NCBI GenBank assembly: GCA_018818205.1
Contig: JAHISJ010000026.1
Location: forward strand, 29,994 to 93,993
DNA length: 64,000 bases
Direction: 5' to 3'
Source: Patescibacteria group bacterium
Lineage (GTDB): Bacteria; Patescibacteriota; JABMPQ01; JAHIRA01
Made by a program: the position numbers and the translations under genes. Shown piece after piece: positions 2,148 through 52,277 of the stretch. How positions within the stretch are numbered: the stretch's first letter is position 1; every line of letters begins with the position of its first letter. Below the pieces are notes generated by a model, which was not told where the DNA came from, did not search any database, and saw only the letters and a program-made list of their open reading frames with translations.

Positions 2148-2219
2148 AACATCCTCCTTTTTTTAAAACCAAAGATCAAAGCCTCACATTATATATAAAA
2201 AAAGGCAATACGTCAATAG

Positions 2220-3299: not shown

Positions 3300-3308
3300 G
3301 TAAGCAAT

Positions 3309-4814: not shown

Positions 4815-4819
4815 ACCAG

Positions 4820-6967: not shown

Positions 6968-6976
6968 AAGATTTTG

Positions 6977-8083
6977 TTAACGTTTCGCTTGAAAATGTTT
7001 CTCGCATTCTTGTTCAAAATACTCCTTCATTTTAGCTTTAAATACAGCAGTGTCAAATTGCAACGCATGGTTACGAATCTCTTGAGGGTTATATTTGCTT
7101 GCATCAAAATCTCTAATAACATCAACAATATCCCACGGCATCTGTTCCTCAAAAAACTCACCCGTTTTGCCTTCAATGATAGTCTCTTTGGCACCTCCTG
7201 CCTTGTAGGCAATCACTGGTCTTCCCGACGCCATTGCCTCAAGAGCTGCAATGCCAAAATCTTCTTCCTGCGGATGTATAAACGCTTTGCATCGTGAAAG
7301 GTAGTAAGCAACTTTATCGTTGGACAGAGGTCCTAAAAATTCAATATTATCGCCTGCCATCTTTTTTAACTTTTCAGTCTCCTCTCCCGCACCAATAATC
7401 TTAAGAGGATATTCCAGAGCATTAAACGCTTGAATGGCTAAATCAACACGCTTGTAAGGTCTGAGTCTACTTACAATCAAATAGTAATCTTCAACCTCAT
7501 CTGAAATAGAAAATCGATCAGTGTCAACAGGCGGATAAATAATTTTGCTACCCCGTTGATAGTACTTTTTTATTCTTTTTTGAACAATCTCAGAATTAGC
7601 AACAAAGCTATCCACACGATCAGCAGCAAGCCTATCCCATAATCTAATCCTGCTCAAAACTACCGGCAACGCTTGTTTAATAATACTTGGCTGTTTTAGT
7701 TCCTCCGTGTAATCATGTGTATCACTCCAAAGATACCGTGTTGGAGAATGGCAGTAACACAAATGCAATGAATTTGGACTGGTAATAACGCCTTTAGCAT
7801 ACGCAGAACTATCAGAGATAACAACATCATATTTTGTCAGGTCAAGGCTCTCTATAGCTGCGGGCATCAAAGACAAATACCACTTATATCGCTTAATGCC
7901 AAAAGGCAAGTTTTGAATAAATGATGTTCGAATATCAAGGTCCTTAAATACACCATATGTTTCCTCTGGATCATGCGTGATTGTGTATATAGGTGCTTTT
8001 GGAAAAAGTTCATGAAAAACCTGCAGGACCTTCTCGGCCCCGCCTACTTGATTCAAAAAATCATGGACAAGTGCTACTTTCAT
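6977..8083 (-). CDS. Glycosyltransferase, group 1 (GT4 family)
   Basis: MKVALVHDFLNQVGGAEKV... and C-terminal FGIAALEAMASGRPVIAY motif. Confidence 0.75.
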   Translation of the reverse strand: MKVALVHDFLNQVGGAEKVLQVFHELFPKAPIYTITHDPEETYGVFKDLDIRTSFIQNLPFGIKRYKWYLSLMPAAIESLDLTKYDVVISDSSAYAKGVITSPNSLHLCYCHSPTRYLWSDTHDYTEELKQPSIIKQALPVVLSRIRLWDRLAADRVDSFVANSEIVQKRIKKYYQRGSKIIYPPVDTDRFSISDEVEDYYLIVSRLRPYKRVDLAIQAFNALEYPLKIIGAGEETEKLKKMAGDNIEFLGPLSNDKVAYYLSRCKAFIHPQEEDFGIAALEAMASGRPVIAYKAGGAKETIIEGKTGEFFEEQMPWDIVDVIRDFDASKYNPQEIRNHALQFDTAVFKAKMKEYFEQECEKHFQAKR

Positions 8084-8087
8084 ATAT

Positions 8088-9512
8088 TTACGAAAAATTT
8101 CTTCTCTTTAGTAACGTGAAGGGAGTTTTAAGGAGTATCTGTAAATCAGTGGCAAACGACCAGTTTTCCATATAGTACACATCAAGTTTAAACTCGTCGT
8201 TAAAATCAAGATCGGAACGCCCACTAATCTGTGCGAGCCCCGTAATGCCCGGTTTCATAGTAAGGATTCTTGTGTGTTGCTTGTCGTAGTTTGCAACCTC
8301 CCGTGGCTGGTGTGGCCGTGGACCAACTAAACTCATATTACCCATAAAAACGTTGAACAATTGTGGTAACTCGTCTAAACTTGTTCGTTCTAAAAACTTA
8401 CCAAGTTTAGTGCGTCGTGGGTCATCAATAACCTTGTAGATGGGCCCCTTCCGCGTACTTTTTTCTTGGATAAGCTCTTTTTCATACTCCAGTGCCTTCT
8501 TTCCTCCATATTCAGTACCAGTACAGTATTCTAATTTCATTGAACGAAGCTTGTACGTATTAAATTCTTTCCCTTTATACCCAACGCGTTTATTCCTGTA
8601 AATAACCGGCCCCGGTGAATCCATTTTAACAATAAGTGCAATAACTGCAAACAGTGGCAAGCAGAGTATGATACCAATGACAGCTGCAATCAAATCAAGT
8701 GTCCTTTTGACTATTCTTCCCCATCCATCAAGTGGTGTTTGCCTCAAGGAGACAATAGGGATACCGGCTAACGTTGTAACATCAATATTGGTTGCCTTGG
8801 TTTCAAAGAAATCAGGAATATAACGATAATCGATTCTAAACTCATCTGCAAGTTGAATAAGCTTTACATTTTTACGTTTATCAAGAGTGGGGTCGCCGTT
8901 GATAATTTCATCAACTCTTCCTTTTTCAAGATTATTCGTAATTTTTTTAAATTCCTCTTTATCAAGCTCCTTAAAATGGTTCATGACTCTATACCCCGCA
9001 TGCGGTTCCTCATGAAAAAATCTGACAAGAGACTTGCACACCTGGTTATCACCAATAACCACCACTCGTCTTACACCATAATCATACTTATACAGATAAC
9101 TTCTGACTCGCCTTACCATAAACCGCCCAAACGTAACCAGAAGCGTTGCCAGAATCCAGTTTGCAATCACAATAAACCGAGATGAAAACAGCTCGTGTCT
9201 AAAAAAGATAAAAATAATCGCACCCATCATCCCTGCAGAAACACCAATAAACACCCTATAGAGATCATCAACGAGGCGCTGTTGCCGTTTAATTTTGTAC
9301 AGCCCGGTAAGTGCAAAGATTCCTATCCAAATGGGAATCATTAAAAGCACCAGTGCAAAATACTCACCAAATGGTAACTCAAATTGCACCGGTCTAATTC
9401 CCTCAATCGTCTGAGAAAAACGAAGGGAATACACAAGAAGCGATGCAATAAGAAGCATCACAAAATCAACGGGAATGAGTAAAACTGTAAAAACAAGTTC
9501 TGCTCTCTTCAA
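8088..9512 (-). CDS. Polyprenyl-phosphate glycosyl-1-phosphate transferase (WbaP/CpsE bacterial sugar transferase family)
   Basis: N-terminal TM domain and a C-terminal sugar-transferase domain with KLRSM...DELPQLFNVFMGNMSLVGPRP. Confidence 0.8.
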   Translation of the reverse strand: MKRAELVFTVLLIPVDFVMLLIASLLVYSLRFSQTIEGIRPVQFELPFGEYFALVLLMIPIWIGIFALTGLYKIKRQQRLVDDLYRVFIGVSAGMMGAIIFIFFRHELFSSRFIVIANWILATLLVTFGRFMVRRVRSYLYKYDYGVRRVVVIGDNQVCKSLVRFFHEEPHAGYRVMNHFKELDKEEFKKITNNLEKGRVDEIINGDPTLDKRKNVKLIQLADEFRIDYRYIPDFFETKATNIDVTTLAGIPIVSLRQTPLDGWGRIVKRTLDLIAAVIGIILCLPLFAVIALIVKMDSPGPVIYRNKRVGYKGKEFNTYKLRSMKLEYCTGTEYGGKKALEYEKELIQEKSTRKGPIYKVIDDPRRTKLGKFLERTSLDELPQLFNVFMGNMSLVGPRPHQPREVANYDKQHTRILTMKPGITGLAQISGRSDLDFNDEFKLDVYYMENWSFATDLQILLKTPFTLLKRRNFS

Positions 9513-28231: not shown

Positions 28232-28317
28232 GATTTTCTTATTGACATTGCGTGATTTTTGTGATTATAATGAAAAGTCTTAAAGACGTCAATATGGTCT
28301 TTCTTTTAGGAGGAGAG

Positions 28318-28920
28318 ATGAAACAAAAATATGACTGGTTTGAAAGATTAATGGATTGGATGGCTTCTAAAGAAGGCTTTATAAGTCGATTTCAAGATTT
28401 TCTTTTTGCTGCTTTTGAGTATATTATTGTTAAATCCGGATGGGACACCATGGAAGATCCCGAGTACCTTGAAGGAGAAGAAGAAAAAGCATTCGCGGAA
28501 GAAGGAAAACTTTTCTTTAAATCACTCAAGATTGAACTTACGGAAGAGAAAATGCCTATCGATAACGTCCTAAAAATAATTCTCCACTACTTCTTTTTGA
28601 TAGTTAACAAAGAGTATCGCATTGGACAAAAATGGGCGCGATTTGTTGTGTGGAGTTCTGAGGGTCACAGACTTCACCCACAGTTCTTTGGAAGACTACA
28701 CATATGTTTAGGAGAAGACTCTATTAAAGAAAGTCTTTATACACAACCTTCTCCTGATTTTACAAAGATCTATGTTGTTTTTCCAAGAAGACCAGAAGAG
28801 ATTACCTTCACTGAATTTAATCTTCGCTATAGTGGAATATATCAATTCCACTATCCGTTCCAACAAACAGCAACTACTACATCATTCTTAAATACAAACG
28901 CCACGCAAGCATCAAGCTAG
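28318..28920 (+). CDS. Hypothetical protein (200 aa)
   Basis: Start reassigned to the Met preceded by the strong SD TAGGAGGAGAG-ATG (MKQKYDWFERL...). No recognisable domain. Confidence 0.45.
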   Translation: MKQKYDWFERLMDWMASKEGFISRFQDFLFAAFEYIIVKSGWDTMEDPEYLEGEEEKAFAEEGKLFFKSLKIELTEEKMPIDNVLKIILHYFFLIVNKEYRIGQKWARFVVWSSEGHRLHPQFFGRLHICLGEDSIKESLYTQPSPDFTKIYVVFPRRPEEITFTEFNLRYSGIYQFHYPFQQTATTTSFLNTNATQASS

Positions 28921-28956: not shown

Positions 28957-31413
28957 CTATATGCTAAGCTCAACTTCTTTTATGAGAACTGCATTGTGAG
29001 CGGTATCATATTCATCTTTTGCAACTGCAATTCTTTCATTAAGCTCTCTTAAAGGTTTAGTTTGAGCGTCCATTTTTTGAGATGCAGTCATAAGCTCATC
29101 AAACACCGCATTGTCCAGCTGAACATTATCAATTTTATTATACGTTTCTTCTCTAAGAAGCGGAGAACCATCTTCTGCCTGATAGTTTCTAAGCGCTCCA
29201 ATAACGTCCATTGACCCAGTAGAAAGTGTAGCGAGTCCTCTTCTAAGTGCTTTTCTATTCTTCATTGTTTGAAAATAGCCAAGCGTAAATGCTTTTTTTG
29301 CTGGATCTTTGTACCCCAGTCTACCAAGTAAATTATCAAGCTCGCCTTTCATTCGGGCAACATCAGCAATATTTGATTCTCTTTCCATATTTTCTTTTTC
29401 ACCCAGCAAGCTACTCAACTTCAATTGCTTTTCATTTGCTTGTTGATCAAGTGCACGTAACTCGTCAGGTCGGGCATTTGCCTCTCTTTGTCTTCTTACA
29501 ATCATTTCTGCCTGCTTTAACGCCATTTGTCTATCAAAGCCTGGAAGCTCTTCAGTTGGCTCTTCACCAAAAGTTGCCCCTTCTTCATGAAAGCCTGGAA
29601 GCTCCAACGTTTTCCCTGCTCCAAAAGCTTCTTCCCACATATTGTCATAGCTCAAGCCAGGTGAGGTGTATTGGTCATATACCTGAGAAGCTTGATCTAA
29701 TCCAAACGTTCGCGCAGTGTCATTACTTGGCTGAACTCCTGCAGCTTCGGCAGTTTGTACGTATTGATTTTCTGCAAACTGACGCTGACTTTGTACTTGG
29801 GCTGTAAGCAAAGAATCTGCTATCTCTTGATCAACGCGCTGCAGCTCTCTCAGTCGTGATTCTAAAAGCATTGTAAGTCCTAAAGGGTTTTTTGCGCTTT
29901 GAGATACTACATCTATAAGACTTTGTTCCATGCCACGAACATTGGCAAGAGACTCATTTATTCTTTGAATTCTTTCTTGTGATACTTCCTTTTCACCCCT
30001 TATTTCTTCTGGCGAAAGCCTTACTGCATCCCGTGCAGTAGTTGCGGAAAGCAAAAGACCATCAGCAAAATCAATAGCTTGAGTAAATTCTTCACGTACA
30101 GATTCTGGATATAGCTTTGATATCTCTGTTTGATTAATAAGGAAGAGGTTCATTTCCATTCTCTTTCCAGTAAATCTAAGAGAAAACTTTTGAATTTTTG
30201 CCTCATATTCTTTTTCATCTCTTCGTTTCAATTCATCCCACCCAAGCTGTGCTATTATTTCAGGACTATAATTTGTATCCTTTACACTACCATCATCTAA
30301 ATTATAAATAGTGTTGAGTACTTGATATTCTTCAGCAGACATTGCACGAGTCATTTCAAGAAGCCTCTGATTATTTTGCATCATTGTATATGCTTCGCCC
30401 ATACTTATTGACAAATCATAATACGTATCCCAACTCATCTGCGCAACTGAAGTAAGTCTCCCCTTTTCACCTTCCTGGAGTTGAATCATTCTTTCAAAAC
30501 GAAGATCTCTCTCACCCTTGGGATAGTCCGTTTTTATATCGTGTTTTTCATATGCTTCTGCTACAGCTCTCTTGCCAGAATCCAATAATCCTTTAAAGTC
30601 TCTTTCTGCTTTTTGAGCAAGACGTTTTTGCTCAGATTGCTCTATACCTTTAGGAAAACCAACCATTTCCTCAGTTTGATTTAATACTTCTGGCGTTTTT
30701 TGAGATAATCGAGCCTGATGTTCTTGCAAGAAATTTTGAACACCTGTACTAAGGTTTTGTTCTATAGTGCGAACAGTATCATTTGGTACTTCTTCATTCC
30801 TAAGAGTATCATAAACAGCACCTTCAGCATCTAAAGCAAATCGAAGGGCTTCCATTTTTAGGGTCACTTTTTGATTAAGCTCAGTCTTTGCAAGTTGCTC
30901 CGAAATATTTGATCTTACTGTAGCAAGCTCAGCACTTGTTTGATCAATCACTTGTCTTTGTGCTTCTTCTGGAAGCTCTTCACCTCGTTTTTCTGCTTCA
31001 TTAACTGCACGAGTAACTACTCCAGGAGTATCAAGTACAACATCCTTAACTTCTTCAGGAGAAACTGGGCCTTCTAACATTTCAGCAAGGATTCTATTTC
31101 TCTCTTCCTCATCTACATACCGTTCTTTCACTGGTCTCAAAGCAGCTCGTTTTTCTTCCTCCGTCAAAGCAATTTCTTGCTTCAATACTCTTTTTTGATT
31201 TGCTTGAGACATACTGGAAACTTCTGCAAAAAAATCACGCAGGGGTGTTTCTTCAGACTGTTCTTCTGACCTTGTTCCTTGACTAAAAACTAAATCTGCC
31301 CATTCTTTTGCTTTTTGGCTTAATGCATCCATATTTCCTTCACGCGCTGCTGCTTCAGCTTCTGCATGTTTTGCGTCGGAATAGATATCTCCTGTTGACA
31401 TTTTTCTAGCCAT
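28957..31413 (-). CDS. Large (818 aa) predominantly alpha-helical, E/Q/R-rich hypothetical protein
   Basis: Long intact ORF with heptad-like periodicity and no TM segment. Lies downstream of the VirD4-like ATPase module on the same strand. Confidence 0.5.
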   Translation of the reverse strand: MARKMSTGDIYSDAKHAEAEAAAREGNMDALSQKAKEWADLVFSQGTRSEEQSEETPLRDFFAEVSSMSQANQKRVLKQEIALTEEEKRAALRPVKERYVDEEERNRILAEMLEGPVSPEEVKDVVLDTPGVVTRAVNEAEKRGEELPEEAQRQVIDQTSAELATVRSNISEQLAKTELNQKVTLKMEALRFALDAEGAVYDTLRNEEVPNDTVRTIEQNLSTGVQNFLQEHQARLSQKTPEVLNQTEEMVGFPKGIEQSEQKRLAQKAERDFKGLLDSGKRAVAEAYEKHDIKTDYPKGERDLRFERMIQLQEGEKGRLTSVAQMSWDTYYDLSISMGEAYTMMQNNQRLLEMTRAMSAEEYQVLNTIYNLDDGSVKDTNYSPEIIAQLGWDELKRRDEKEYEAKIQKFSLRFTGKRMEMNLFLINQTEISKLYPESVREEFTQAIDFADGLLLSATTARDAVRLSPEEIRGEKEVSQERIQRINESLANVRGMEQSLIDVVSQSAKNPLGLTMLLESRLRELQRVDQEIADSLLTAQVQSQRQFAENQYVQTAEAAGVQPSNDTARTFGLDQASQVYDQYTSPGLSYDNMWEEAFGAGKTLELPGFHEEGATFGEEPTEELPGFDRQMALKQAEMIVRRQREANARPDELRALDQQANEKQLKLSSLLGEKENMERESNIADVARMKGELDNLLGRLGYKDPAKKAFTLGYFQTMKNRKALRRGLATLSTGSMDVIGALRNYQAEDGSPLLREETYNKIDNVQLDNAVFDELMTASQKMDAQTKPLRELNERIAVAKDEYDTAHNAVLIKEVELSI

Positions 31414-31495
31414 ATTTTTTTATTACTTATATTATTTTTACTAGCTATGAACTATAGCATAAAATTGCCAATCTGTCAATACTTTTCCTTATTCT

Positions 31496-32077
31496 TCATT
31501 GCACGAGACATTTTTTACACTTCTCTATCATTAACTGCTGTGCTTCTTCTTCAAACTTCTGAGCATCGAGAAGTAATTGTGACCCATGCTCAAACGTCTG
31601 TGCACCATCTTCACCTGCCAAAAGGTTGTCAAAACCCTTTACGTACGACTCATATCCCTCTGCTTGAAACGTATACTTTGAAATAAGTTTTTCTTGAATG
31701 CCTACCGATGTACCTTTGGCTGAAATGGTACCCATCTTTTCCTGAGCACGCGACGCCTCTTTGCTAGCCTCATTGAAAAGCTCTTTTCTCTGCCTCCAGA
31801 CTGAACGTCTAGCTTCATTCTCTTCCCCCTGGTCTTTTTCTTGAAGGTTGCCGTCTTTTTCCATTAGGTCAGCAATAGCTAGCCCCTCATGTATATACAC
31901 TTCTTTGTTATACTCTTCAACAAACAAGACAACGTCTCGCGTTTGAAAGTAACCCTCGAGCGCAGGTCCCAGTTGAAACCTGTACATCACTGCCCCAAAA
32001 ACTACAAAAAGAATGACGATACCACTACTGATTATTTTCTGTCTTTTTAGTATACTCTCTTCTTTAGAAGAAATCAT
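31496..32077 (-). CDS. Membrane-anchored hypothetical protein (N-terminal TM, charged helical ectodomain)
   Basis: 193 aa with TM segment IISSGIVILFVVFGAVMY. Its start overlaps the stop of the upstream ATPase gene. Confidence 0.45.
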   Translation of the reverse strand: MISSKEESILKRQKIISSGIVILFVVFGAVMYRFQLGPALEGYFQTRDVVLFVEEYNKEVYIHEGLAIADLMEKDGNLQEKDQGEENEARRSVWRQRKELFNEASKEASRAQEKMGTISAKGTSVGIQEKLISKYTFQAEGYESYVKGFDNLLAGEDGAQTFEHGSQLLLDAQKFEEEAQQLMIEKCKKCLVQ

Positions 32078-33567
32078 TACGTATCGTTATCCTTCTGCAC
32101 TGACTGAAATGCCTTCTTAAACGGTTTATGAGAATCATCGTTAACCTTAGATTGGGAGTGGGATTGATTCTGTCTCGGCTGAGTATCGCTGCGATTTTGA
32201 TACTTTTTTGGTTCTCGTTTTTTTTGATACTCATTGGGTCTTGACCTTGGACTTGACTTTGGGGATTCCATTTCACCCTTTGTCGGTTCCGTACTATCTG
32301 TAAACCCACTAAAGCGAGCAATTTTCCCCTCAATTATTTCTCGTTTTTTTGCATACCGTTCACGAGAGATACGAATAATTTTATCCTGAAATCCATCTGG
32401 CTCCCATGTTGGTGCAATAGACTGAGCACTAAACGCCTGGGACGCCACACCATTTATCATAAGTTTTAAGTACACATTATACTTAGTCAGATTTACGAGA
32501 TGGTTTGCGGTAAACACCGGTTCAAACTCTGTCTCAAACATCTCTGAATCTTGTGCACCAATTCTAAAAACAATCATAGTCCCCACATTGCCAAACACCG
32601 CATCGTACACCGTCTCCGGAAGCTGGTTAATATACTGATGGGCCATAATTAAATTTAATCGATACTTACGCGCTTCAGATAAAATGTCAGCAAAACTGTC
32701 CGTAGCAAAATTTTGGAACTCATCAACGTAGAGATAGAAGTCCACACGCTTTTCCTCCTGAATATCAACACGACTCATTGCCGCAAGTTGTAGTTGCGTA
32801 ATCATCATAGCACCAAAAAGCGCAGAGGCGTCTTCACCGACTTTTCCTTTGGATAGGTTTAAAAGCAAGATCTTCTTTGAATCAATAACATCACGCATAT
32901 TTATGGTCGACTTTGGTTGTCCAACAATGTTTCTGATAAGTGAAATCGACAAAAACTGACCAACCTTATTCTGAATTGGCGCAATTGCCTCTTGCTGAAA
33001 CTTGTCGGGATACCGCGAGTACTCGTCTACCCAAAAAGATTTTACCACTGGGTCAGTAACCTTACTTATAACCTTTTTTCTAAACGACTTGTCCGTAAGC
33101 ATACGCATGATACCAAGAAGCGTACTCCCCGGGTAATCAAGCAAAGCAAGAATGGTATTCCGAAGCACATACTCAAGCCGTGGTCCCCACGAATCTGCCC
33201 AAATCTTTTTAAAAACACCTAAAAGTCCTGATGCAACAAGATGTTTGTATTCAGGATTGACGCTTTCCATCACATTAAACCCAAGAGGATAATTAATATC
33301 CCCGGCATCAAAATATATGACGTCGTTTACTCTATTTGACGGCACATATTGAAGCATCTTGTGAGCAAAGTCGCCATGAGGGTCAACGACGCAAAGACCA
33401 TTGCCTTTCCGTATGTCGCTAATAACCATATTCTCAAGAAAAGTCGTCTTTCCCATTCCGGTTTTTCCAATGACATACATATGACGTCTTCTGTCATCCC
33501 TGCGAATACCAAATTTGGTAAACTTTCCTCTATAATTTGTCTCTCCGAGTATTGTTACATCATCCAT
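32077..33567 (-). CDS. P-loop ATPase of the VirD4/TraG/TrwB (type IV coupling protein) and FtsK-HerA superfamily
   Basis: Walker A VIGKTGMGKTT, Walker B FYLYVDEF, a C-terminal HQYINQL motif and a basic/low-complexity tail. No N-terminal TM helices of its own. Confidence 0.55.
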   Translation of the reverse strand: MDDVTILGETNYRGKFTKFGIRRDDRRRHMYVIGKTGMGKTTFLENMVISDIRKGNGLCVVDPHGDFAHKMLQYVPSNRVNDVIYFDAGDINYPLGFNVMESVNPEYKHLVASGLLGVFKKIWADSWGPRLEYVLRNTILALLDYPGSTLLGIMRMLTDKSFRKKVISKVTDPVVKSFWVDEYSRYPDKFQQEAIAPIQNKVGQFLSISLIRNIVGQPKSTINMRDVIDSKKILLLNLSKGKVGEDASALFGAMMITQLQLAAMSRVDIQEEKRVDFYLYVDEFQNFATDSFADILSEARKYRLNLIMAHQYINQLPETVYDAVFGNVGTMIVFRIGAQDSEMFETEFEPVFTANHLVNLTKYNVYLKLMINGVASQAFSAQSIAPTWEPDGFQDKIIRISRERYAKKREIIEGKIARFSGFTDSTEPTKGEMESPKSSPRSRPNEYQKKREPKKYQNRSDTQPRQNQSHSQSKVNDDSHKPFKKAFQSVQKDNDT

Positions 33568-33597
33568 TGTAGTAGTACATATACACGTTTATTCTTA

Positions 33598-34878
33598 TTA
33601 CATTGGGACAGGCAGATCCGGTGGTGGCTCTGCTTTTCTGGTATCAAGACGCTCAAGTGTTGGCGTCCGCACACTCTCATAGGGGAAGTGATACATTGTA
33701 GCAATTTCCTCGGTACTCATAACATAGGCATTGCCACCCATCCACGGATCCCGCCCTTTAAATCCTTTCATAATTAACCGTTTTCTTCTTGGAACACGCA
33801 TTTTTTTAAAGTAGTCAACCGATGTCCAGTTTTTGGTGTTCGGTTTCAAACCATTGAGATTCTCCGTAGTAAATATGCGCATGAACATAAACATAGGCAT
33901 CATACCTTTTGGCTTATTAAAAACCTCGTTTTTGCCAACATATACAAACCGCATCTTGACAAAAAACGCAATCTTGGAGATACTCTCCTCTATTGCTTTA
34001 ATAACTTCCCGTTCTCCTGGAGAAAGGAAGGACATCTCCATACCCTCTTCATCTTCAATCTCAGAAGGAGGAAACCCAAGTGCATTATCAATATTCTTCT
34101 CTACATTATGCCACCCTCCCAAAACGTACCGAGAAACCCAAGATTCAGACGATTTTGGTGAACGGTTCATAAGTTCATCTACAACCGCTAACGCTTTTTT
34201 TTGCCACTTCTCGTCCCACCGTGGCTGTATGATTATCTGAAACCACAACTGTTCACCGGGATTTAATCCACTCATTGCCTCAGTAAGCGTTGAGACGGGG
34301 TCAATAAAACCCTTTTCAATATCTTCAGCAAACGACTTGTACGTACGGATAGGATAGGGATCTGGACGCACTAGAGCTATTTCTGTTCCATACATATCAT
34401 ACTCCTCATTTGGATACGTGTCAGGCGCAAAAGTTACATAGTCCTCGACAAGCATGATTTCAGCCTCTGGATAATACGCATAAATCATTGCCTCAAGTGA
34501 TTCTCTGTACTTGTTAGGCATGCGCATAAGAAACCGCACCTGGCCATTAATACCTACTATCTCAAGGCTTACACTGAGCTGAAACTCGCCATACCAGTAC
34601 TTTTCATACATATTTGGAGGATGTTCAATAGAGTGAATAGCAGTAATAATTTGCTCCATTGATTTTGGATCCTTGATATTATCAGCAGGAATAGTAATGG
34701 CAATTAAGTCATAGTCAATAGAGAGCGCGAATTTAATCTGCCTTCTAAAAAGAAATAGCTGAAATCCCAAATACAAAAAAAGTGGTATTAAAATAAACCA
34801 CGTATATGAAATTACTAAAGAGATATAACCCCAAAGCTCGATTAAGCCCGGTCCAACTTCTTGAAGCATACTACTCAC
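33598..34878 (-). CDS. Polytopic membrane protein, hypothetical, partner of the VirD4-like ATPase
   Basis: 426 aa with an N-terminal TM pair (WFILIPLFLYLGFQLFLF) and a large soluble domain. Separated by 30 nt from the ATPase gene on the same strand. Confidence 0.5.
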   Translation of the reverse strand: MSSMLQEVGPGLIELWGYISLVISYTWFILIPLFLYLGFQLFLFRRQIKFALSIDYDLIAITIPADNIKDPKSMEQIITAIHSIEHPPNMYEKYWYGEFQLSVSLEIVGINGQVRFLMRMPNKYRESLEAMIYAYYPEAEIMLVEDYVTFAPDTYPNEEYDMYGTEIALVRPDPYPIRTYKSFAEDIEKGFIDPVSTLTEAMSGLNPGEQLWFQIIIQPRWDEKWQKKALAVVDELMNRSPKSSESWVSRYVLGGWHNVEKNIDNALGFPPSEIEDEEGMEMSFLSPGEREVIKAIEESISKIAFFVKMRFVYVGKNEVFNKPKGMMPMFMFMRIFTTENLNGLKPNTKNWTSVDYFKKMRVPRRKRLIMKGFKGRDPWMGGNAYVMSTEEIATMYHFPYESVRTPTLERLDTRKAEPPPDLPVPM

Positions 34879-34934
34879 TTAAATTTGATCTCTGTTTTAC
34901 GGCCCCTAACTATTCAGTGCACCCTATAATAGTC

Positions 34935-36020
34935 TTATGACTTTGTAACGTATACAAAACCATCACCTTGTTTCTGAATTGCATCTCTACTTTGTAATGC
35001 TAACACGATTGTATTTTTCTTTACAAGACGTTGTTTGCGTACTTTTTCAACAATTTCTTCTTTGGTAAGTGGTCCATCAGCATTTTTTAGAACATCTAAG
35101 ACAACATCAGCTACAGTACCGGTCTGATATCCCCATGACGTCAACGCATAAATGCCACGCCCTACAAGAACAAATCTACCATCTTTGATAAGCTCATTGT
35201 GGACAGTCTGTGCGATAGCTTCTTTTTTACTAAAGCCAGCTTCGTTAATTTTCTTTGTAATCTCTGTAAAGTGAAGAGGCTTTCCTTCTTTTTTGAGGAT
35301 AATATATGCCTTATCTTTTACTCCACGAGGAATAATCTCACTCCAATGTGCAAGACCCCATTCATCAAATGGATTACGCTTAATACGTTTACCAATAAGT
35401 AAATATGACTTCACTCGCTCAGAGTCACGCTTCTCATCAGTTATTTCTTCCGCTTTTGGATGATTTACCACATGCTCGACAGCGAGACCATGGTTAACAG
35501 GCTCATTTTTTTCTTCAAGAATTTCAATAAAAGACTGGATTACCTTTTCCGGAACACGCAAGTCAGCGTCTTTAATGTACCAGTGTTTATTGTATTCGTC
35601 GGTCTCTTTATTATCAAAAAATCGATCACTAATATGCAGTACAAACTCAACATGATTATCATGTACGTCACCAGGAAGTTCTTCTTTTGATTTTTCTACC
35701 AAGTACTGATGTTCCATGATATGACCGTAGTCTGCAATAATGTGCTCAATAATATCTTCCGTTGGAATAAGATCCTCCATTTTTTCTGAGGATTTTAATT
35801 CCTTTAATGCCGCAGATTCTATTTGTCTTACACGCTCACGAGTAATCTCGTACGCTTTACCTATTTCTTCAAGTGTCATCTTGCGTGATCTATCAAGCCC
35901 GTATCGTTTAAGAACAATGTCTCTTGTTCGCTCAGGGAGATCAGTAATGAACGCACGAATAACAGCCTCAAGATCTTTTGAGACAGTGTCTGCTGCGTAT
36001 TGTTCAGCTGCGTTCACCAT
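34935..36020 (-). CDS. Sigma-70 region-4 (HTH) domain protein with a long C-terminal extension
   Basis: The N-terminus DLPERTRDIVLKRYGLDRSRKMTLEEIGKAYEITRERVRQIESAALKELK is a classic sigma-70 region 4.2 HTH. Regions 2 and 3 are not recognisable. Confidence 0.55.
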   Translation of the reverse strand: MVNAAEQYAADTVSKDLEAVIRAFITDLPERTRDIVLKRYGLDRSRKMTLEEIGKAYEITRERVRQIESAALKELKSSEKMEDLIPTEDIIEHIIADYGHIMEHQYLVEKSKEELPGDVHDNHVEFVLHISDRFFDNKETDEYNKHWYIKDADLRVPEKVIQSFIEILEEKNEPVNHGLAVEHVVNHPKAEEITDEKRDSERVKSYLLIGKRIKRNPFDEWGLAHWSEIIPRGVKDKAYIILKKEGKPLHFTEITKKINEAGFSKKEAIAQTVHNELIKDGRFVLVGRGIYALTSWGYQTGTVADVVLDVLKNADGPLTKEEIVEKVRKQRLVKKNTIVLALQSRDAIQKQGDGFVYVTKS

Positions 36021-36221: not shown

Positions 36222-36509
36222 CTAAATAAAGGATTGAATCCTCTGAGCTTCTTCTTGAACAACAGCACTTTCTTCATCTTCATAACACCTAACTCCCTTT
36301 TTATGCATTGGACGTCTGGCATCAAAATGGAGATCTAAAATGACACTGTAATCTGATCCGTACTTTAAAAGTACATGAAAACGAGGATAAAAAGATGCTC
36401 CCGTTCTTCTGATATAGCTCTCGCCACCTGTCGTGGGGTTGCGCCACGGTTTATATCCTGCTTTTCGCATGACGTTCCGGGGATTTGTTTGTCCTATAGA
36501 TATTTTCAT
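36222..36509 (-). CDS. Hypothetical basic protein (95 aa); weak RelE/ParE-like resemblance
   Basis: The FYPRFHVLLKYGSDYSVILDLHFDARR segment loosely resembles the RelE-fold C-terminus. No antitoxin-like partner is evident. Confidence 0.3.
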   Translation of the reverse strand: MKISIGQTNPRNVMRKAGYKPWRNPTTGGESYIRRTGASFYPRFHVLLKYGSDYSVILDLHFDARRPMHKKGVRCYEDEESAVVQEEAQRIQSFI

Positions 36510-36551: not shown

Positions 36552-36857
36552 TTACCTAAGCTCTTCTTTGACTTTCTCCTTCAACGTATCATCAATCTCA
36601 TCCGGAAGCATATCGCCTTCGGGATTATGTTCTGTGGCTTCCTCGTACACCTTATACTTAGCGTCAGTCACTGCGCCTCTTAATGATTCTTTTTCTTCCG
36701 CAGTAAGATCTTGCCTGAGCTTAAGCACATAGTAATCTTTAAAGGTTTTATACGTAACGACACCAACATCTTTCTTTACAGTATATGCTGCATAACCAAT
36801 AACGCCCCCGATAGTGAGCAAAACAATGAGTATAAATCCTGCGATAAATCGAATCAT
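36552..36857 (-). CDS. Small single-TM membrane protein, hypothetical
   Basis: N-terminal TM FIAGFILIVLLTIGGVIGYAAY and an acidic tail. Overlaps the MiaB-like gene stop by 4 nt. Confidence 0.4.
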   Translation of the reverse strand: MIRFIAGFILIVLLTIGGVIGYAAYTVKKDVGVVTYKTFKDYYVLKLRQDLTAEEKESLRGAVTDAKYKVYEEATEHNPEGDMLPDEIDDTLKEKVKEELR

Positions 36858-38155: not shown

Positions 38156-39445
38156 ATGCAACCTTCAAAAACAGCGTTCATTATAGGCTCAGGATTTTCT
38201 AAAGATCTTTGTGGACTACCTACCTTAACTGGCGAAAATAGCTTAAGTTCATTAGTTATTGAAAAACTTCAAGAACATGAAAACGAATCAGTCAAACTAT
38301 TCATTAATAGTATCTCAAGCGAAATAAAGGATAACATTGAACACTTAATGAGCTATCTTATCCAGGATAATCCATGGTCAAATGAAACAGAAAAGCACTT
38401 AGCAAAAGCCTCGTATCATGTAATTACGGATTTAATACATAAAGTACTTGATGAAAATGATCAGGAACTGAAAACTGAAGAAGAATACATTCAACAACTT
38501 TTTTCATTTTGGCACAAATATGAAACTGACGTCATTAGTTTTAATTATGATACTTTAATTGAAAAATATACTCAAAAATTCTTAAAAGTGAAAAAGGTAG
38601 AAACCCCTGAAAATAAAAGAAATGCAATAAAAACAGTACTCATAATAGCTGACGAGCATAATAAATTAGCACAAGAAAAAGAAATACATATCTATAAAAA
38701 AAACAACATACGTTATATTTACTTAAAAAATAGAAGTATAGTAACTGATGGATTGCTCTCTCAAATTCATAGTAAACTTTACGGAGAAACTGCTCCAGAA
38801 AAGTCTAGTTATATAAACCCTTTGATAAATAAGTTGAAAGAAAAAGTAACTCTCAAAGATATTTATCAGATTCCTATACCTAATGTTAATGAAAGAGTAG
38901 GAGGTCTGTGGCTAAATAGCAGTAGAAATAACTCATTAAAACTTCTAAAACTGCATGGATCAACAAACTGGCTTTATTCAGGTGACGAAAATCTTACTGG
39001 TGAAGATATTCGTCATATTCCTCTTGATCGAAAATCAAGCAAAATAAGCCTCTCTGGTCTTGTTAGGTATATTATTCCTCCAGTCTTAGATAAAAGTCCT
39101 TTTTATAAAAACAATTCTTTAAAAACCCAATGGACTAAAGCAAGAGAAGCGCTCGAAACTGCCAATGATATTATTATTATTGGATATTCTTTCCCAGAAA
39201 CAGATCTCTCAACAAGATTCATGATCCAGCAAGCACTTAAAGAAAATAAAAAAGCAACTATACATCTAGTATCTAGACCACAAAAAGTAGTAGAAGGTGG
39301 AAAAGAAAAGAAACAAACAGAAGAAGAAATACGTGAAGAATCTGCAGAAAACTTGAAGGAGTTTTTAAAACATAACCTTATAAAAGTTTATGTTCCTGAA
39401 AAAAGTTCAATAGTTGAAACTTGTAAATTGCTTAAGAAAAAATAA
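38156..39445 (+). CDS. SIR2-like (SIR2_2/DHS-like NAD-binding) family protein, candidate defense-type NADase
   Basis: N-terminal glycine-rich loop AFIIGSGFSKDLCGLPT; a central HG motif (LKLHGSTNWLY); and a C-terminal IIIIGYSFPETD motif. These are the three hallmark blocks of the SIR2_2 family. About 30% GC, clearly below its neighbours. Lies next to tRNA-Lys. Confidence 0.5.
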   Translation: MQPSKTAFIIGSGFSKDLCGLPTLTGENSLSSLVIEKLQEHENESVKLFINSISSEIKDNIEHLMSYLIQDNPWSNETEKHLAKASYHVITDLIHKVLDENDQELKTEEEYIQQLFSFWHKYETDVISFNYDTLIEKYTQKFLKVKKVETPENKRNAIKTVLIIADEHNKLAQEKEIHIYKKNNIRYIYLKNRSIVTDGLLSQIHSKLYGETAPEKSSYINPLINKLKEKVTLKDIYQIPIPNVNERVGGLWLNSSRNNSLKLLKLHGSTNWLYSGDENLTGEDIRHIPLDRKSSKISLSGLVRYIIPPVLDKSPFYKNNSLKTQWTKAREALETANDIIIIGYSFPETDLSTRFMIQQALKENKKATIHLVSRPQKVVEGGKEKKQTEEEIREESAENLKEFLKHNLIKVYVPEKSSIVETCKLLKKK

Positions 39446-48353: not shown

Positions 48354-51300
48354 CTATCCCTTCTTAAGCCCAATATCTTCCTTGACTAGCCCCTTCTCAC
48401 CCCCATGAATAGGAACCTTACCCTCAGGAAAGCTAAACCCTTCACGTTTTGGAATAAGCACATAATCGTCATCTCCCACCAAAAAGCCATATCGTCCATC
48501 TGAGTTGGTAACTCTGGCCATGAGAATCCTCCCAAACCGTGGCTCAAAGAGTCTAACTATTACTTTAGAAAGAGTGTAGTTGGTATCAGTATCATAGGTA
48601 TGTCCCCAAGGCTTTGCAATCTTACGAGCGGCAAGCCGTCTAAAGAGAAAGAATAATAGAATGTGAACTACAAATAGGACTGCGGTAAACCACGACGGTG
48701 CAAGCACCAATGCAATAAGCCCCAGAAGTGGACCAAGGAATGAAAACACAAAAGAGATCTTGCGAGCCCTGTCTGCACGTACCATGCGCTTGTCCTCAAT
48801 CGCGATCTCTTCCTTTGAAAGTGTCTGCATGTCCTGCATGGTCGTGACACTCGTTTTAATTGGTTTTCTATACTTATCATCCAAAAATGCCATACCCTGC
48901 GCCGGATCTATTGGTACATCAAAAGCAATGATTCCATCCGTGGTAGACTTTTCATTAACATCAAAACTAAAGATCTCTCCGTTATATACCCGCTTACCCC
49001 CATGCACCGATTTACTGTTAGTGTGAGAAGGAAACGTAAACCCATCCCTAGTTACGGTCATGTAGTAGGCTTTCCCCTTTTCAGCCAAAAAGTAATATCG
49101 TCCCTTTGCATCCGTGACTGATGACTCGAGTAACTTCCCGGTTTCTTTGTCAAAAAGCCTCACAATAGCTAGATCAAGAGGTTCATCTGTCAGCGAATTA
49201 TAAACTGATCCCCACTTTCTCCTGCCTTTGACCGCAAAGAACCTAAATGGCTCGCTAAAGAGTTGTGCAAGGTATTTTAAATACGGAAAAAGTGTCTGAG
49301 CGACTGACACGGATGCAAGAATATTGGTCAATGCGACAAGAGCGGTAAGCGGCACCAATCCTGCATCAACAGCTCTCTTCACTGACTCATTTTGCCAGAC
49401 CGGTTCAAAAAATGCCGCAACAAATCCTTTTTCTTCTACTTGCGGCTCGTCAATGAGTATCTCCTCTTTTTTGTCCTCTACTATTACCTCTTTCTTATCA
49501 TCCTTTTTGTCCTCAACAATGATCTCTGTTTTATCTTCAATAATCACGTCATCCTTTTTGTCCTCTACCGTATCCTCAATAACTTCAATGATCTCAACTG
49601 GTGGCTCCTCAATCGGGGTGATTGGTGTCACTTGAGGAACTTTAGGACCACCAAGAATACCTCTTACAACCGGAGGAACAACACGACTAATAATCCTAGT
49701 TTTTGCCGCATACCCAAATTTCGCTCCATTATATGCGATAAGACTCGTCTTTAAAACGACCTGCCCGGGGTTCCTTTTGGTTGTTGGTTCATAGTTAGAA
49801 AGCGCCTGTGACCCTTCATCAACCGAGACCATATAAAATCCTGCAGACATACCGTACACATCAAACGTTCCTATTCTGCCGGTAGCTCCCGTAAACGCAA
49901 GCGTATCACCAACATCTATTTTGCCATCATGGTTGTTGTCATTATATACACGGACAGTTACACCAGAGATACCTCCCTCGCCTTGATTTTGAACACCATT
50001 TTTATTGATGTCATTAAATACAAGGCCGGAGATACTCCCTTGTGCCCGTACTGTATTTTGAATCGTATTAGAACGTGCACCTAGTCTCCCAGGATTATAC
50101 GCACCTGCTGCACGACTATCTATTACATCCCCATCAAACGCTGTGTTACTCACTAACACCTTAAAGCTGAATGTTCCCTTCTCACCCACCTTAAGCGACC
50201 CAATATCAAAATAGACATTATTTTTCATAGTAACGCTATAGTCACCTTGATCAACGTCCTTTCTGTCACTAATAGCTCGCCCGTTATACATAAGTGAACC
50301 GGAAATATACGAGGTATGCCCCGGAATGCTGTCAGAAATGTAGAACCCAAACGCATCGCCTGAACCGATATTCTCATACGCAACTTCATACAAGAGTTCA
50401 TCTCCTGGTTTTACATCACCATTGCCAAATGTGCCTGAGGTTGCGGTCATGGTTTTTGTAAGAGTAACAACCGGTCCCGTCGATAAAATAGCGTAGAGCT
50501 CAGTGTGCACTGTCTCCTGATTTCCCGCCCTATCTATAGAGAAATATTTGAGTGTCGCTCCTCGACTAATTGTAAAGGGGGCATTATAACGCAATGAATG
50601 TACCGTTGGTGTTGAATTGTCAAGTGTATAATACGTGGCATCACACCCAGAGCCACCGGGATCTTGGCAGATAAGCGTAACGGATACGGGATTTTGGTAG
50701 TTGCCGCCTGCAGGAGAAACGGTTGTAGTTGGAGGAGTTTTATCTTGATTAACCAACACAAAAACAGGAGATGATACAAACGCGCCATTTGTCCCGGAAA
50801 AACCGCGTATGCGCACCTGTGTATTTGGTGCATTAATAAACGGTTCATTAAGCACAGAATCCCATATTGTTGTCACCGCGTTTTTGCCCGATGCGGTAGT
50901 AACATAGCCAGATGAGTTCCCTATTTGGTTTGTATTGTTGTTGTCTACTTTAGGATCACCGGTTGTTGCCGAGGTGTTTGCATCAACAGTGCTGATTGTC
51001 GCTTTACCAAAAGCACCGCCAACTGAATACTCAACGTACGCCTCTGTGTCTGCTGCGTTGTCTTCTGTTTCAACATCAAAGCTAATATCAACGTAGCCGC
51101 TACCACCCTGCCGCTCGCTTGCAGTGAGATTTGAAATAGTTGGTGCTAAACTCGGATACACTAGCGCGCTTGTTCCTACAAATCTAGAAATACTAAAAAG
51201 GGTAACACTTTTGTAAGTAATGGCATCGAGCACGCCTGAATTATCCGATGCACTTGCATCGTTAAACACATCATTAAAGCCGTTAGTATTTTGCTGGGCA

Positions 51301-52277
51301 TACACACCACCGGATTTTGATACAAATAGCTGAGCTCCATCCGTGCTGTTATCACCCGTCACATAAAACAAATCGTTCCTTTCTCCAAAGGTTGAAATTG
51401 AAGTGACACCGGCACTTGCCCCAACGTTCACGAGTGCATATTGCCCTGCACCAGACGCCGTTTGAGACTTACGTACTTCTCCCCCATTAACGTTGCTCGT
51501 ACCTACATACAATTCATTATTATGTACATATAATGCGGTTACTCGACCGTTGTTCACATCGCCAAATCCATCATTATTTACCTGCGCCCAACCTGTACCA
51601 TTGTTTGTTCTGTGAAGCTCACCGCCGGTTGCCAAATTAGTTGTACCAACATATAGATAAGAATTAAAGACAGCCATGGATCGAGGCCAATTGTTACTTG
51701 CATCGCCAAAACCATTATTGACGACTTTAGTAAACGACGTTCCAGTATTGGTTCGCCAAATCTGAAATCCGGCAACATTGTTAAAGGTGCCCACATAGAG
51801 ATACCCGTTAAACACTTCCATGTTGTACATGCGTAGATTTGCAGCCTCACCAAAACCATCCCCGCCTACCTGTGACCAACTGGATCCGTCAGATGTACGC
51901 CACACCTCTCCAGGATCAACCTCTTTACCCGTTCCAAGATACAAAAAACCATCGTACACTTTCATGGAATGACACGAAGAATTGCTCACCTCACCAAATC
52001 CTCCACTTAAAACCTTACTCCACGTAAGTGCGTCAGTGCTCTTCCAAACCTGCACACCACCGGAATTTGACGTACACGCATACAAATCACCGTTAAACTC
52101 TGCCATGGCACCAGCATCTAAATTTCCTGCTTCACCAAAACCTGCGCTGCCTGACTCGAAAAAGGGATACGCTGCATGTGCACTATACGCAACAAAAAAC
52201 ATACACACAAAAATCGCAAAACTAATAAGCGATGTGTAGATTAACGAAAAGTATTTTTTGTTTGATTTAGTACGCAC
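48354..52277 (-). CDS. Giant (1307 aa) cell-surface adhesin-like protein
   Basis: Signal/TM N-terminus. About 7 beta-propeller-type repeats (GFGDxxN...FNGYLYVGT...W). A DUF11-type conserved repeat domain, an SdrD/Cna-B-type domain, and an acidic K/E/D linker. C-terminal region with TM helices and two carboxypeptidase-regulatory-like domains. Confidence 0.6.
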   Translation of the reverse strand: MRTKSNKKYFSLIYTSLISFAIFVCMFFVAYSAHAAYPFFESGSAGFGEAGNLDAGAMAEFNGDLYACTSNSGGVQVWKSTDALTWSKVLSGGFGEVSNSSCHSMKVYDGFLYLGTGKEVDPGEVWRTSDGSSWSQVGGDGFGEAANLRMYNMEVFNGYLYVGTFNNVAGFQIWRTNTGTSFTKVVNNGFGDASNNWPRSMAVFNSYLYVGTTNLATGGELHRTNNGTGWAQVNNDGFGDVNNGRVTALYVHNNELYVGTSNVNGGEVRKSQTASGAGQYALVNVGASAGVTSISTFGERNDLFYVTGDNSTDGAQLFVSKSGGVYAQQNTNGFNDVFNDASASDNSGVLDAITYKSVTLFSISRFVGTSALVYPSLAPTISNLTASERQGGSGYVDISFDVETEDNAADTEAYVEYSVGGAFGKATISTVDANTSATTGDPKVDNNNTNQIGNSSGYVTTASGKNAVTTIWDSVLNEPFINAPNTQVRIRGFSGTNGAFVSSPVFVLVNQDKTPPTTTVSPAGGNYQNPVSVTLICQDPGGSGCDATYYTLDNSTPTVHSLRYNAPFTISRGATLKYFSIDRAGNQETVHTELYAILSTGPVVTLTKTMTATSGTFGNGDVKPGDELLYEVAYENIGSGDAFGFYISDSIPGHTSYISGSLMYNGRAISDRKDVDQGDYSVTMKNNVYFDIGSLKVGEKGTFSFKVLVSNTAFDGDVIDSRAAGAYNPGRLGARSNTIQNTVRAQGSISGLVFNDINKNGVQNQGEGGISGVTVRVYNDNNHDGKIDVGDTLAFTGATGRIGTFDVYGMSAGFYMVSVDEGSQALSNYEPTTKRNPGQVVLKTSLIAYNGAKFGYAAKTRIISRVVPPVVRGILGGPKVPQVTPITPIEEPPVEIIEVIEDTVEDKKDDVIIEDKTEIIVEDKKDDKKEVIVEDKKEEILIDEPQVEEKGFVAAFFEPVWQNESVKRAVDAGLVPLTALVALTNILASVSVAQTLFPYLKYLAQLFSEPFRFFAVKGRRKWGSVYNSLTDEPLDLAIVRLFDKETGKLLESSVTDAKGRYYFLAEKGKAYYMTVTRDGFTFPSHTNSKSVHGGKRVYNGEIFSFDVNEKSTTDGIIAFDVPIDPAQGMAFLDDKYRKPIKTSVTTMQDMQTLSKEEIAIEDKRMVRADRARKISFVFSFLGPLLGLIALVLAPSWFTAVLFVVHILLFFLFRRLAARKIAKPWGHTYDTDTNYTLSKVIVRLFEPRFGRILMARVTNSDGRYGFLVGDDDYVLIPKREGFSFPEGKVPIHGGEKGLVKEDIGLKKG

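Follow-up and report, generated by a model that had tools for sequence, protein, structure and literature searches.

Gene organization of the locus

The window analyzed here is a 64-kb stretch of DNA (positions 29,994–93,993 of contig JAHISJ010000026.1, assembly GCA_018818205.1) from a Patescibacteria group bacterium. It contains five minus-strand genes in a row (Table 1), among which a gene for a protein of the Pfam family DUF8128 is directly followed by a gene for a TrwB/VirD4-type P-loop ATPase. Sequence comparisons indicated that these two genes encode a chromosomally fixed, split, and domesticated type IV coupling protein (T4CP). The Patescibacterial pair is read in this way because its fused homologues occupy the position of a T4CP, and its own synteny is that of housekeeping genes.

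The five open reading frames (ORFs) listed in the initial annotation were all found, in the same order and at the same coordinates. The distances between them are 56 nt (sigma-like/DUF8128), 30 nt (DUF8128/ATPase), −1 nt (ATPase/193-aa protein), and 82 nt (193-aa/818-aa proteins), and the GC content of the five-gene stretch (0.39–0.41) is that of its flanks. The rest of the window is ordinary chromosome, with genes for glycosyltransferases, a MiaB-like radical-SAM enzyme, a Mur ligase, and a penicillin-binding protein (PBP) as well as mreB, murA, rpoA, the S11 gene, ftsA, alaS, mnmA, dnaJ, dnaK, grpE, hrcA, and mraW. VirB4, VirB6, relaxase, and integrase genes were found nowhere in the whole 64-kb window, as expected from the initial annotation, which had remarked on missing VirB-type channel, relaxase, and integrase genes; no mobile-element or type IV secretion system (T4SS) genes were present within the 64 kb. 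Unlike the surroundings of the fused homologues described below, the window has no Replic_Relax-like ORF (PF13814).

Table 1. Genes of the five-gene stretch, with their positions in the window
Feature	Position	Strand	Basis
Sigma-70 region-4 + HARE-HTH protein (361 aa)	34935..36020	−	Pfam
DUF8128 protein (426 aa; NCBI start 3 codons later)	33598..34878	−	Pfam of homologues
TrwB/VirD4-type P-loop ATPase (496 aa)	32077..33567	−	Pfam, Foldseek
Single-transmembrane protein (193 aa), clade-specific	31496..32077	−	ORF, hydrophobic segment
E/Q-rich ORFan (818 aa)	28957..31413	−	ORF

Features of the ATPase

In Pfam searches, the ATPase matched TrwB_AAD_bind over residues 22–337 with a score of 37.4 bits (gathering score, 20.5), and it also exceeded the thresholds for DUF87 and TraG-D_C. 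T4SS-DNA_transf (18.1; threshold, 20.1) and FtsK_SpoIIIE (15.7 bits; threshold, 24), the latter covering only the P-loop, fell short. The protein was not placed in a KaiC/RecA or ABC family: KaiC-type and ABC models were missing or below the threshold. No Pfam match to AAA_10 or CagE was obtained, and NCBIfam gave sub-threshold matches only (TraD, CD1115, CedD, and VirB4 equivalogs).

The best solved structure by sequence was TrwB (E = 8e-7). The AlphaFold2 (AF2) model of the ATPase, with a predicted local distance difference test score (pLDDT) of 79 and a predicted template modeling score (pTM) of 0.77, has a disordered stretch at residues 423–485, within a basic C-terminal tail of about residues 421–496. 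Foldseek with this model returned TrwBΔN70 first (E = 3e-9; TM-score normalized to the target, 0.60–0.63; 14–16% identity) in an alignment of about 420 columns, followed by DotL, Cagβ, HerA (about 1e-6), and the VirB4 C-terminal domain (9e-6). In the model, the all-α domain between Walker A and Walker B is present as a helical block at about residues 105–230, between K40 and D282. Walker A (G34–K40), Walker B (D282/E283), H310-Q311-Y312, and R335 were constant in all 28 homologues compared. Pfam, Foldseek, and the constancy of these motifs agree with the initial description of the protein as a VirD4/TrwB-like P-loop ATPase with Walker A/B and HQY motifs.

The window ATPase thus has in common with TrwB of R388 and with VirD4 the RecA-like nucleotide-binding domain with the all-α fold, the Walker A/B motifs, and TrwB_AAD_bind. 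It differs from them in lacking a transmembrane domain of its own, in having a large, separate N-domain protein, and in having no linkage to a relaxase or to mating-pair formation (MPF) genes. As had been noted initially, the ATPase has no transmembrane or hydrophobic segment, and the N-terminal transmembrane domain of the VirD4/TrwB T4CPs is thus not in the same polypeptide.

The tails past residue 420 were 64–322 aa long and net-positive in 24 of the 28 homologues, and 12 of the 28 carried a CxxC…CxxC zinc ribbon (PF23477). Acidic tails have been described for many T4CPs (PMC7434980). Because the tails of this ATPase are, unlike these, net-basic and often bear a zinc ribbon, they point to nucleic acid as the probable ligand.

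The DUF8128 membrane partner

Homologues of the 426-aa protein bear the Pfam domain PF26449 (DUF8128). This identity was taken from the precomputed Pfam labels of the homologues; local Pfam, NCBIfam, and PADLOC searches with the protein itself gave no DUF8128 match. Its sole hydrophobic stretch lies at about residues 11–45, within a single long helix (residues 2–53) of the AF2 model, and is followed by a soluble α/β domain of about 370 aa (pLDDT 86, pTM 0.80). The protein, which the initial annotation had called polytopic, is accordingly modeled as bitopic, with a single N-terminal transmembrane helix and a cytoplasmic α/β domain. It has a conserved EPPxxLP tail at its C terminus, and the ATPase has an HQPFKKAF motif.

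Coupling proteins without a transmembrane segment that are accompanied by a separate membrane protein form a recognized subfamily, for example, TraJ/TraI of pIP501 (PMC7434980). The logic of that pair is the same in that a soluble coupling ATPase is brought to the membrane by a separately encoded protein. However, DUF8128 is a large α/β-domain protein (about 430 aa) and not a small membrane protein, and the pIP501 genes belong to a conjugative plasmid operon, unlike the chromosomal pair in the window. The likeness drawn here is one of arrangement.

Sequence and profile searches with the DUF8128 protein against the Protein Data Bank (PDB) gave nothing at E ≤ 10. Foldseek against the PDB returned full-length TrwK/VirB4 chains first (E = 2.4e-4, probability 1.0), with TM-scores of just 0.32–0.38, and Foldseek against viral models returned gp156 of phage G (E = 1e-15), a fused protein of phage JL (E = 2e-14), and the VirB4-like gp155 (E = 2e-7). 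As DUF8128 has no P-loop, the N-terminal domain of VirB4 would be its likely counterpart. In hhalign comparisons of DUF8128 with VirB4-like proteins (phage G gp155 and the VirB4 of a Bacillus subtilis plasmid), there was no signal, so this likeness comes from Foldseek only and is an unconfirmed lead. In VirB4 (TrwK of R388), the plan likewise has two parts, with a VirD4-like motor placed after an N-terminal domain that is not an ATPase; the window ATPase is closer to TrwB and, as noted above, matches neither AAA_10 nor CagE. If the likeness is true, this T4CP lineage would have kept the VirB4-like two-domain plan with a VirD4-like motor.

Single-chain homologues in plasmids and phages

Both proteins matched one PHROGs family, phrog_5156 (824 positions): positions 76–363 correspond to the DUF8128 protein (E = 5e-8) and positions 406–804 to the ATPase (E = 9e-59). 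In hhalign comparisons, the DUF8128 profile matched residues 4–323 of phage G gp156 (825 aa; probability 97%, E = 5e-11) and residues 53–302 of an 886-aa "DUF87" protein from a B. subtilis plasmid (probability 97.4%, E = 1e-11), and the ATPase profile matched residues 326–714 of the same 886-aa protein (probability 99.9%, E = 3.5e-33). The probability for the ATPase profile against the VirB4 of that plasmid was 1.6%. The match of the DUF8128 profile to an Embleya fused protein was weak (probability 22%, E = 1e-3). A tblastn search of plasmids with DUF8128 gave no match, and the fused N-domains are visible to profile methods only. From the phrog_5156 and hhalign matches, together with the Foldseek matches of DUF8128 to fused viral proteins, the DUF8128 and ATPase genes of the window correspond to the two parts of what is one polypeptide in other genomes.

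The fused proteins are 800–900 aa in length; plasmids of Bacillus and Embleya carry them, as do Bacillus phages (G and SPO1-like). The representatives considered were WP_121549396 on the B. subtilis plasmid NZ_CP032854, WP_331738717 on the Embleya plasmid, gp156 of phage G, and CampHawk_129. On the 24.7-kb B. subtilis plasmid, the genes that come after the fused gene are, in order, those for Replic_Relax (PF13814), a conjugal-transfer protein, TcpE, VirB4 (AAA_10, 389 bits), and a further conjugal-transfer protein. On the linear Embleya plasmid, the order is PrgI-family protein, XF1762, VirB4-like ATPase, the 812-aa fused T4CP, Replic_Relax, and NlpC/P60, and the fused protein exceeds the thresholds for both T4SS-DNA_transf and TrwB_AAD_bind. 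On both of these plasmids as well as in phage G, the place of the coupling protein in a gene cluster of monoderm conjugation or T4SS-like type is taken by the fused protein. An assignment of Replic_Relax to the MOB_L relaxase family was not borne out by PMC5313138 and was not used.

In phage G (L087, JN638751), positions 1798–7362 encode a T4SS-like trio consisting of gp153 (TrbL/VirB6-like), gp155 (VirB4-like ATPase), and the fused gp156, which is annotated as an "MsbA-like permease." In the SPO1-like phage CampHawk (L088, KF669649), positions 3759–9284 encode a 906-aa fused homologue, annotated as hypothetical, between a ParM-like actin and Replic_Relax; this block is a plasmid-like segregation/transfer module within a lytic phage.

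Both halves of the fused phrog_5156-type T4CPs are thus homologous to the window genes, in the same domain order. In contrast to the fused proteins, the window version is split into two genes, chromosomal, and vertically inherited, has a basic/zinc-ribbon tail, and has no adjacent Replic_Relax, VirB4, TcpE, or PrgI gene. The window partner also has an N-terminal transmembrane helix, whereas no transmembrane segment was predicted in the B. subtilis plasmid and CampHawk proteins; gp156 lacks an N-terminal one, and that of the Embleya protein was predicted at residues 34–56.

Further tblastn matches to the ATPase were found on Streptomyces, Clostridium, Staphylococcus, haloarchaeal, and Sulfolobus plasmids. 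These hosts correspond to the host range of the FATA class of mating-pair formation systems. The best match outside Patescibacteria was on the Sulfitobacter mediterraneus plasmid NZ_CP081110 (L089; positions 6983–8170; 38% identity, E = 1e-92). This gene is isolated (395 aa), lies between transposases and a recombinase, and has no DUF8128 annotated alongside; the copy may reflect inter-phylum transfer.

Distribution, synteny, and conservation in Patescibacteria

The ATPase search returned at least 8,000 clusters. The best 120 of them, apart from the 100% cluster of the query itself, were 60–77% identical to the query, and the sources named among them include Buchananbacteria, Kerfeldbacteria, Andersenbacteria, and Pacebacteria. 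When one genome per GTDB species was scanned, at least 585 DUF8128 loci were confirmed, and 80 of these were analyzed together with four fetched earlier (84 in total).

DUF8128 was directly followed by the ATPase in 71 of the 80 loci in which the contig allows judging, which bears out the initial view that the ATPase has a dedicated membrane partner. In 60 of 83 assessable loci, the gene immediately before DUF8128 was the sigma-like gene. Wherever gene calls were available for a Patescibacterial neighbourhood, DUF8128 and the ATPase had been called as two genes, and in the remaining loci they gave separate, non-overlapping tblastn matches. The sigma-like/DUF8128/ATPase order recurred across related genomes within a backbone, dnaK-dnaJ…miaB-like…sigma-like–DUF8128–ATPase…mnmA–alaS–ftsA…infA-S13-S11-S4-rpoA, that recurs across classes. 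The initial annotation had described a recurrent module of five genes; this holds for the core of three, whereas the 193-aa and 818-aa proteins had no tblastn match in the 84 related loci. No relaxase, VirB4, or VirB6 family was found among the called genes of the Pfam-listed Patescibacterial neighbourhoods (±8–10 kb), a screen that did not extend to the flanking regions of the 80 GTDB loci. The arrangement varied in some genomes: in five loci of the Magasanikbacteria type or related to it (L028, L031, L051, L058, and L072), DUF8128 lay directly after secD-secF with neither the sigma-like gene nor the ATPase adjacent, and in L052 and L073, the sigma-like gene still adjoined DUF8128 though the ATPase did not.

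The median identities to the window proteins were as follows: ATPase, 62.5%; alanyl-tRNA synthetase (AlaRS), 49.6%; MnmA, 42.5%; sigma-like protein, 37.4%; and DUF8128, 34.8%. In all 16 loci holding both, the ATPase was more conserved than AlaRS. From the synteny across classes and the conservation of the ATPase, the locus is a vertically inherited chromosomal core under very strong constraint and not an accessory or mobile module. The recurrence of orphan coupling ATPases of uncharacterized function in Patescibacteria, which had been stated initially, was seen here and is also documented in PMC12102498, where 5,713 VirD4-like genes were counted in 2,918 of 3,035 genomes (96%).

The nearest relatives outside Patescibacteria are plasmid and phage genes, and the pair could on this ground be taken for what is left of a degenerating conjugative element or prophage once integrated here. 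There is, however, no integrase, relaxase, repeat, or GC anomaly, the catalytic motifs are intact, selection is strongly purifying, and the same chromosomal position is kept across classes. The probability of this explanation is negligible, and synteny and conservation effectively refute it.

PADLOC searches with the ATPase matched HerA models (E = 7e-11) and, over almost the entire length of the profile, mad8 (E = 2e-15), and a SIR2-like gene lies 4.6 kb away, as might be expected if the pair formed an anti-phage defence module built on a HerA/MADS-type ATPase. The mad8 and HerA scores reflect the common fold. The pair is near-universal and vertically inherited, with an ATPase above AlaRS in conservation, whereas defence systems are patchy, and no MADS or HerA partner genes are present. 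Distribution, conservation, and partner genes are all contrary to this explanation, which was rejected as highly improbable. The SIR2-like protein itself (429 aa; window 38156–39445, plus strand; PADLOC SIR2 models, best E = 2e-14) is encoded on the opposite strand in a low-GC stretch (0.33 versus about 0.40). Because it is missing from all of the syntenic loci, it is probably a horizontally acquired defence gene, and it is apparently unrelated to the nearby HerA-superfamily ATPase.

The sigma-like neighbour

The 361-aa protein contains Sigma70_r4 at residues 27–76 (52 bits) and HARE-HTH at residues 234–296 (58 bits) according to Pfam, so that the sigma-70 region-4 helix-turn-helix protein of the initial annotation was confirmed and a second domain added. 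Its family profile matched region 4 of primary sigma factors in the PDB (E = 2e-19), and its HARE-HTH domain just reached the model of the N-domain of the RNA polymerase (RNAP) delta subunit, TIGR04567 (42.1; cut-off, 42). More than 7,000 candidate matches to this protein were found; the best 120 measured about 340–414 aa and shared both Pfam domains, and all taxa named for them belonged to Patescibacteria/CPR.

The adjacency of the sigma-like gene and DUF8128 is kept despite different upstream genes (secDF, a sugar transferase, or a miaB-like gene). Because it survives these changes upstream and, in L052 and L073, the displacement of the ATPase, a functional link of the sigma-like protein to the DUF8128/ATPase pair is plausible, with chances about equal either way. 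An analogy to relaxase-accessory proteins by homology was dropped, as BLASTP and hhalign showed the sigma-like protein to be unrelated to Replic_Relax.

The sigma-like protein consists of RNAP- and DNA-binding modules, namely a primary-sigma region 4 and a delta-like HARE-HTH, and the frequent adjacency of its gene across differing upstream contexts, together with the division and cell-wall genes nearby (ftsA, mreB, murA, and PBP), would suit a motor that acts with it on the cell's own DNA or RNA polymerase, such as an FtsK-like motor that handles the chromosome at the membrane or one that remodels transcription complexes. Against such a role, the ATPase does not reach the FtsK_SpoIIIE threshold and lacks the gamma domain, and a separate ftsK gene is carried by TM7x, at least one Patescibacterium that does not lack it (PMC10768705). 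Moreover, the neighbourhood may be historical in these compact, highly syntenic genomes, the sigma-like gene is non-adjacent in 23 of the 83 loci, and the fused homologues have no such partner. We regard a transcription or chromosome motor as very unlikely, and a replacement of FtsK was considered and rejected.

Two small minus-strand ORFs without Pfam matches sit between the MiaB-like and sigma-like genes: a 95-aa basic ORF (window 36222–36509) and a 101-aa ORF with an N-terminal transmembrane segment (36552–36857). Six related genomes had tblastn matches to the 95-aa ORF (35–59% identity); in L004 and L007, the match adjoins the sigma-like gene on its upstream side, and in the other four, it is elsewhere in the locus. 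The 101-aa ORF had matches of 41–59% in L004 and L007. Unnamed ORFs of 101 and 95–96 aa at the same position in the closest clade (L085, L092, and L093) were likened to them by position alone.

Variable gene content from the ATPase to mnmA

The ATG of the 193-aa ORF shares one base, the last A, with the stop codon TAA of the ATPase gene, and translation of the 193-aa ORF is coupled to that of the ATPase. The 193-aa protein has one hydrophobic segment, at its N terminus, so that both the membrane anchor and the overlap described in the initial annotation were seen. The only homologue found for it is a 217-aa ORF that occupies the corresponding place in L092, the closest relative (31% identity, E = 2e-18).

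The 818-aa protein was correctly described as E/Q-rich (19% E+Q). Among 1.84 billion representative proteins, it matched only itself and one other protein weakly (E = 5e-4); no Pfam, NCBIfam, PADLOC, or PDB match was obtained at the reporting thresholds, and the sole PHROGs match, phrog_20948, was sub-threshold (E = 0.066). At the same position, relatives hold proteins of 813, 823, and 878 aa that have no Pfam domain and no significant BLASTP similarity to it (E = 0.02–1.4); two of the large island proteins of the relatives are 38% identical to each other.

In the closest clade, whose ATPases are about 70% identical, the ATPase is followed by a single-transmembrane protein of about 200 aa in some cases, an 813–878-aa protein without Pfam domain, an opposite-strand ORF of 160–220 aa, and mnmA. 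In other lineages, mnmA directly follows the ATPase, or UDP-glucose dehydrogenase and permease genes lie between them. The 193-aa and 818-aa proteins, which had been counted as members of the recurrent module, are present, or have positional analogues, only in the closest clade; they form a clade-specific variable island that is not part of the phylum-wide core, and the evolution of the large protein in it is extremely rapid.

Ahead of the 818-aa gene, at 31479–31451, lies a promoter-like site of the sequence TTGACA-17-TATAGT with TG (11 of 12 matches). As the counts of sites in the promoter/terminator scan did not exceed those in shuffled sequences, such sites were used as weak hints only. 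Between the 818-aa gene and mnmA lies a 222-aa ORF on the opposite strand without a family match (window 28252–28920, plus strand). A perfect TTGACA-18-TATAAT site (28242–28271) precedes it and overlaps the GTG at which it is listed to begin, so that translation probably begins at a later codon. Relatives have unrelated or diverged ORFs of 160–206 aa at this position.

Elsewhere in the window, two very large, probable surface proteins are encoded on the minus strand (48354–52277 and 60748–63822), one of 1307 aa with CHB_HEX_C, SdrD_B, and CarboxypepD_reg domains and the other of 1024 aa with a right-handed β-helix. They look like typical epibiont adhesins.

Proposed function of the pair

The T4SS of Patescibacteria is MPF-FATA-like, and relaxases are rare (PMC12102498). 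We give about an even chance to the reading that the DUF8128/ATPase pair is the coupling protein of this distant, relaxase-poor system. By analogy with characterized systems, we infer that the pair works as a hexameric translocase tethered to the membrane, with nucleic acid or nucleoprotein as its probable cargo. The transmembrane helix of DUF8128 would tether the ATPase to the cytoplasmic membrane, as in TrwB and the rings of the FtsK–HerA superfamily, and the ATPase would build a hexameric ring there. Driven by ATP, the ring would recruit a substrate that is a polymer and drive it in the direction of a channel in the membrane; the disordered, net-basic, and often zinc-ribbon-bearing tails suggest that this substrate is most probably nucleic acid or nucleoprotein. 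The pair would thus serve as the substrate receptor and motor of a monoderm-type T4SS whose virB4 cluster lies elsewhere in the genome. Because no relaxase is present, this T4SS would be domesticated for a non-conjugative task. The sigma-like protein is probably co-transcribed with the pair and may supply binding to DNA or RNAP.

Several points weigh against this assignment. The link of the pair to a T4SS, the hexamer, the contact between DUF8128 and the ATPase, and the substrate are all inferred. The scores for the NCBIfam T4CP equivalogs are far under the cut-offs (SXT_TraD, TIGR03743, 51.2 versus 366; CD1115, NF045973, 49.8 versus 250), and DUF8128 occurs without an adjacent ATPase in 9 of 80 genomes. 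Only 148 of the 5,713 Patescibacterial VirD4-like genes are near virB4, and a T4CP-like gene is present in more genomes (2,918) than VirB4 is (2,417 of 3,035; 80%) (PMC12102498). Furthermore, the t4cp homologue of Ca. Southlakia epibionticum is dispensable for epibiotic growth, whereas the T4SS genes are essential (PMC12102498). The Southlakia gene may or may not be the DUF8128-linked orthologue, and redundancy between the roughly two VirD4-like copies per genome could explain its dispensability.

The same gene counts and the non-essential t4cp homologue would also fit a translocase independent of the T4SS, that is, a split T4CP exapted as an autonomous, membrane-tethered nucleic-acid pump that is no longer linked to VirB4 and imports or exports DNA or RNA via another channel, for example, ComEC or another pore. 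Exaptation was raised by the authors of that study (PMC12102498), the tails are basic or zinc-ribbon-bearing and not acidic as is typical of T4CPs (PMC7434980), the gene is extremely conserved in housekeeping synteny, and the mechanism of host RNA uptake in Patescibacteria is still open (bioRxiv 10.64898/2026.06.21.733656). On the other hand, the readable contexts of non-Patescibacterial homologues, except for the isolated Sulfitobacter copy, are all T4SS or conjugation clusters, and no candidate channel gene is linked to the pair. The gene counts themselves are open to other explanations, since about two copies per metagenome-assembled genome inflate detection relative to the single-copy virB4, and T4CPs are commonly encoded apart from virB4. 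An autonomous pump is the main alternative but is judged less likely than coupling to the T4SS.

A distinctly less probable idea is that the pair is an inner-membrane motor that pulls host nucleic acid (RNA or DNA) into the nucleotide-auxotrophic Patescibacteria. The motor would act at the base of the T4SS or pilus or via another pore, and the basic/zinc-ribbon tail, possibly with the sigma-r4/HARE-HTH protein, would hold the polymer. If this were true, a conjugation coupling protein would be run "in reverse" as a feeding device. As a lesser corollary, the hypervariable proteins of about 820 aa encoded after the ATPase in the closest clade could be its secreted substrates.

Relation to previous work and implications

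That orphan VirD4-like genes are abundant in Patescibacteria, and the idea of their exaptation, have already been published (Quiñonero-Coronel et al. 2025, PMC12102498). Those genes are likewise unlinked to virB4, and the window ATPase is almost certainly one of the 5,713 T4CP homologues in that study, which does not include the DUF8128 partner, the split/fusion relation, the sigma-like neighbour, or the housekeeping synteny. A full-text literature search for DUF8128 returned no paper, and our literature search found nothing on the split/fusion relation, the combination of housekeeping synteny and conservation, the basic/zinc-ribbon tails, or the sigma-r4/HARE-HTH neighbour.

Patescibacteria make up a large share of bacterial diversity and cannot make nucleotides, lipids, or most amino acids. 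They must draw such material from host cells, and how it crosses the membrane is an open question. With an identity of about 62% in the compared loci, tighter than that of alanyl-tRNA synthetase, the ATPase clearly does something central. Its reading as one subunit of a two-subunit machine whose single-chain relatives are of the conjugation type would provide it with a defined membrane partner and a candidate DNA-binding neighbour. It would also assign a role to the Pfam family DUF8128 and to an unannotated PHROG family of SPO1-like and jumbo Bacillus phages.

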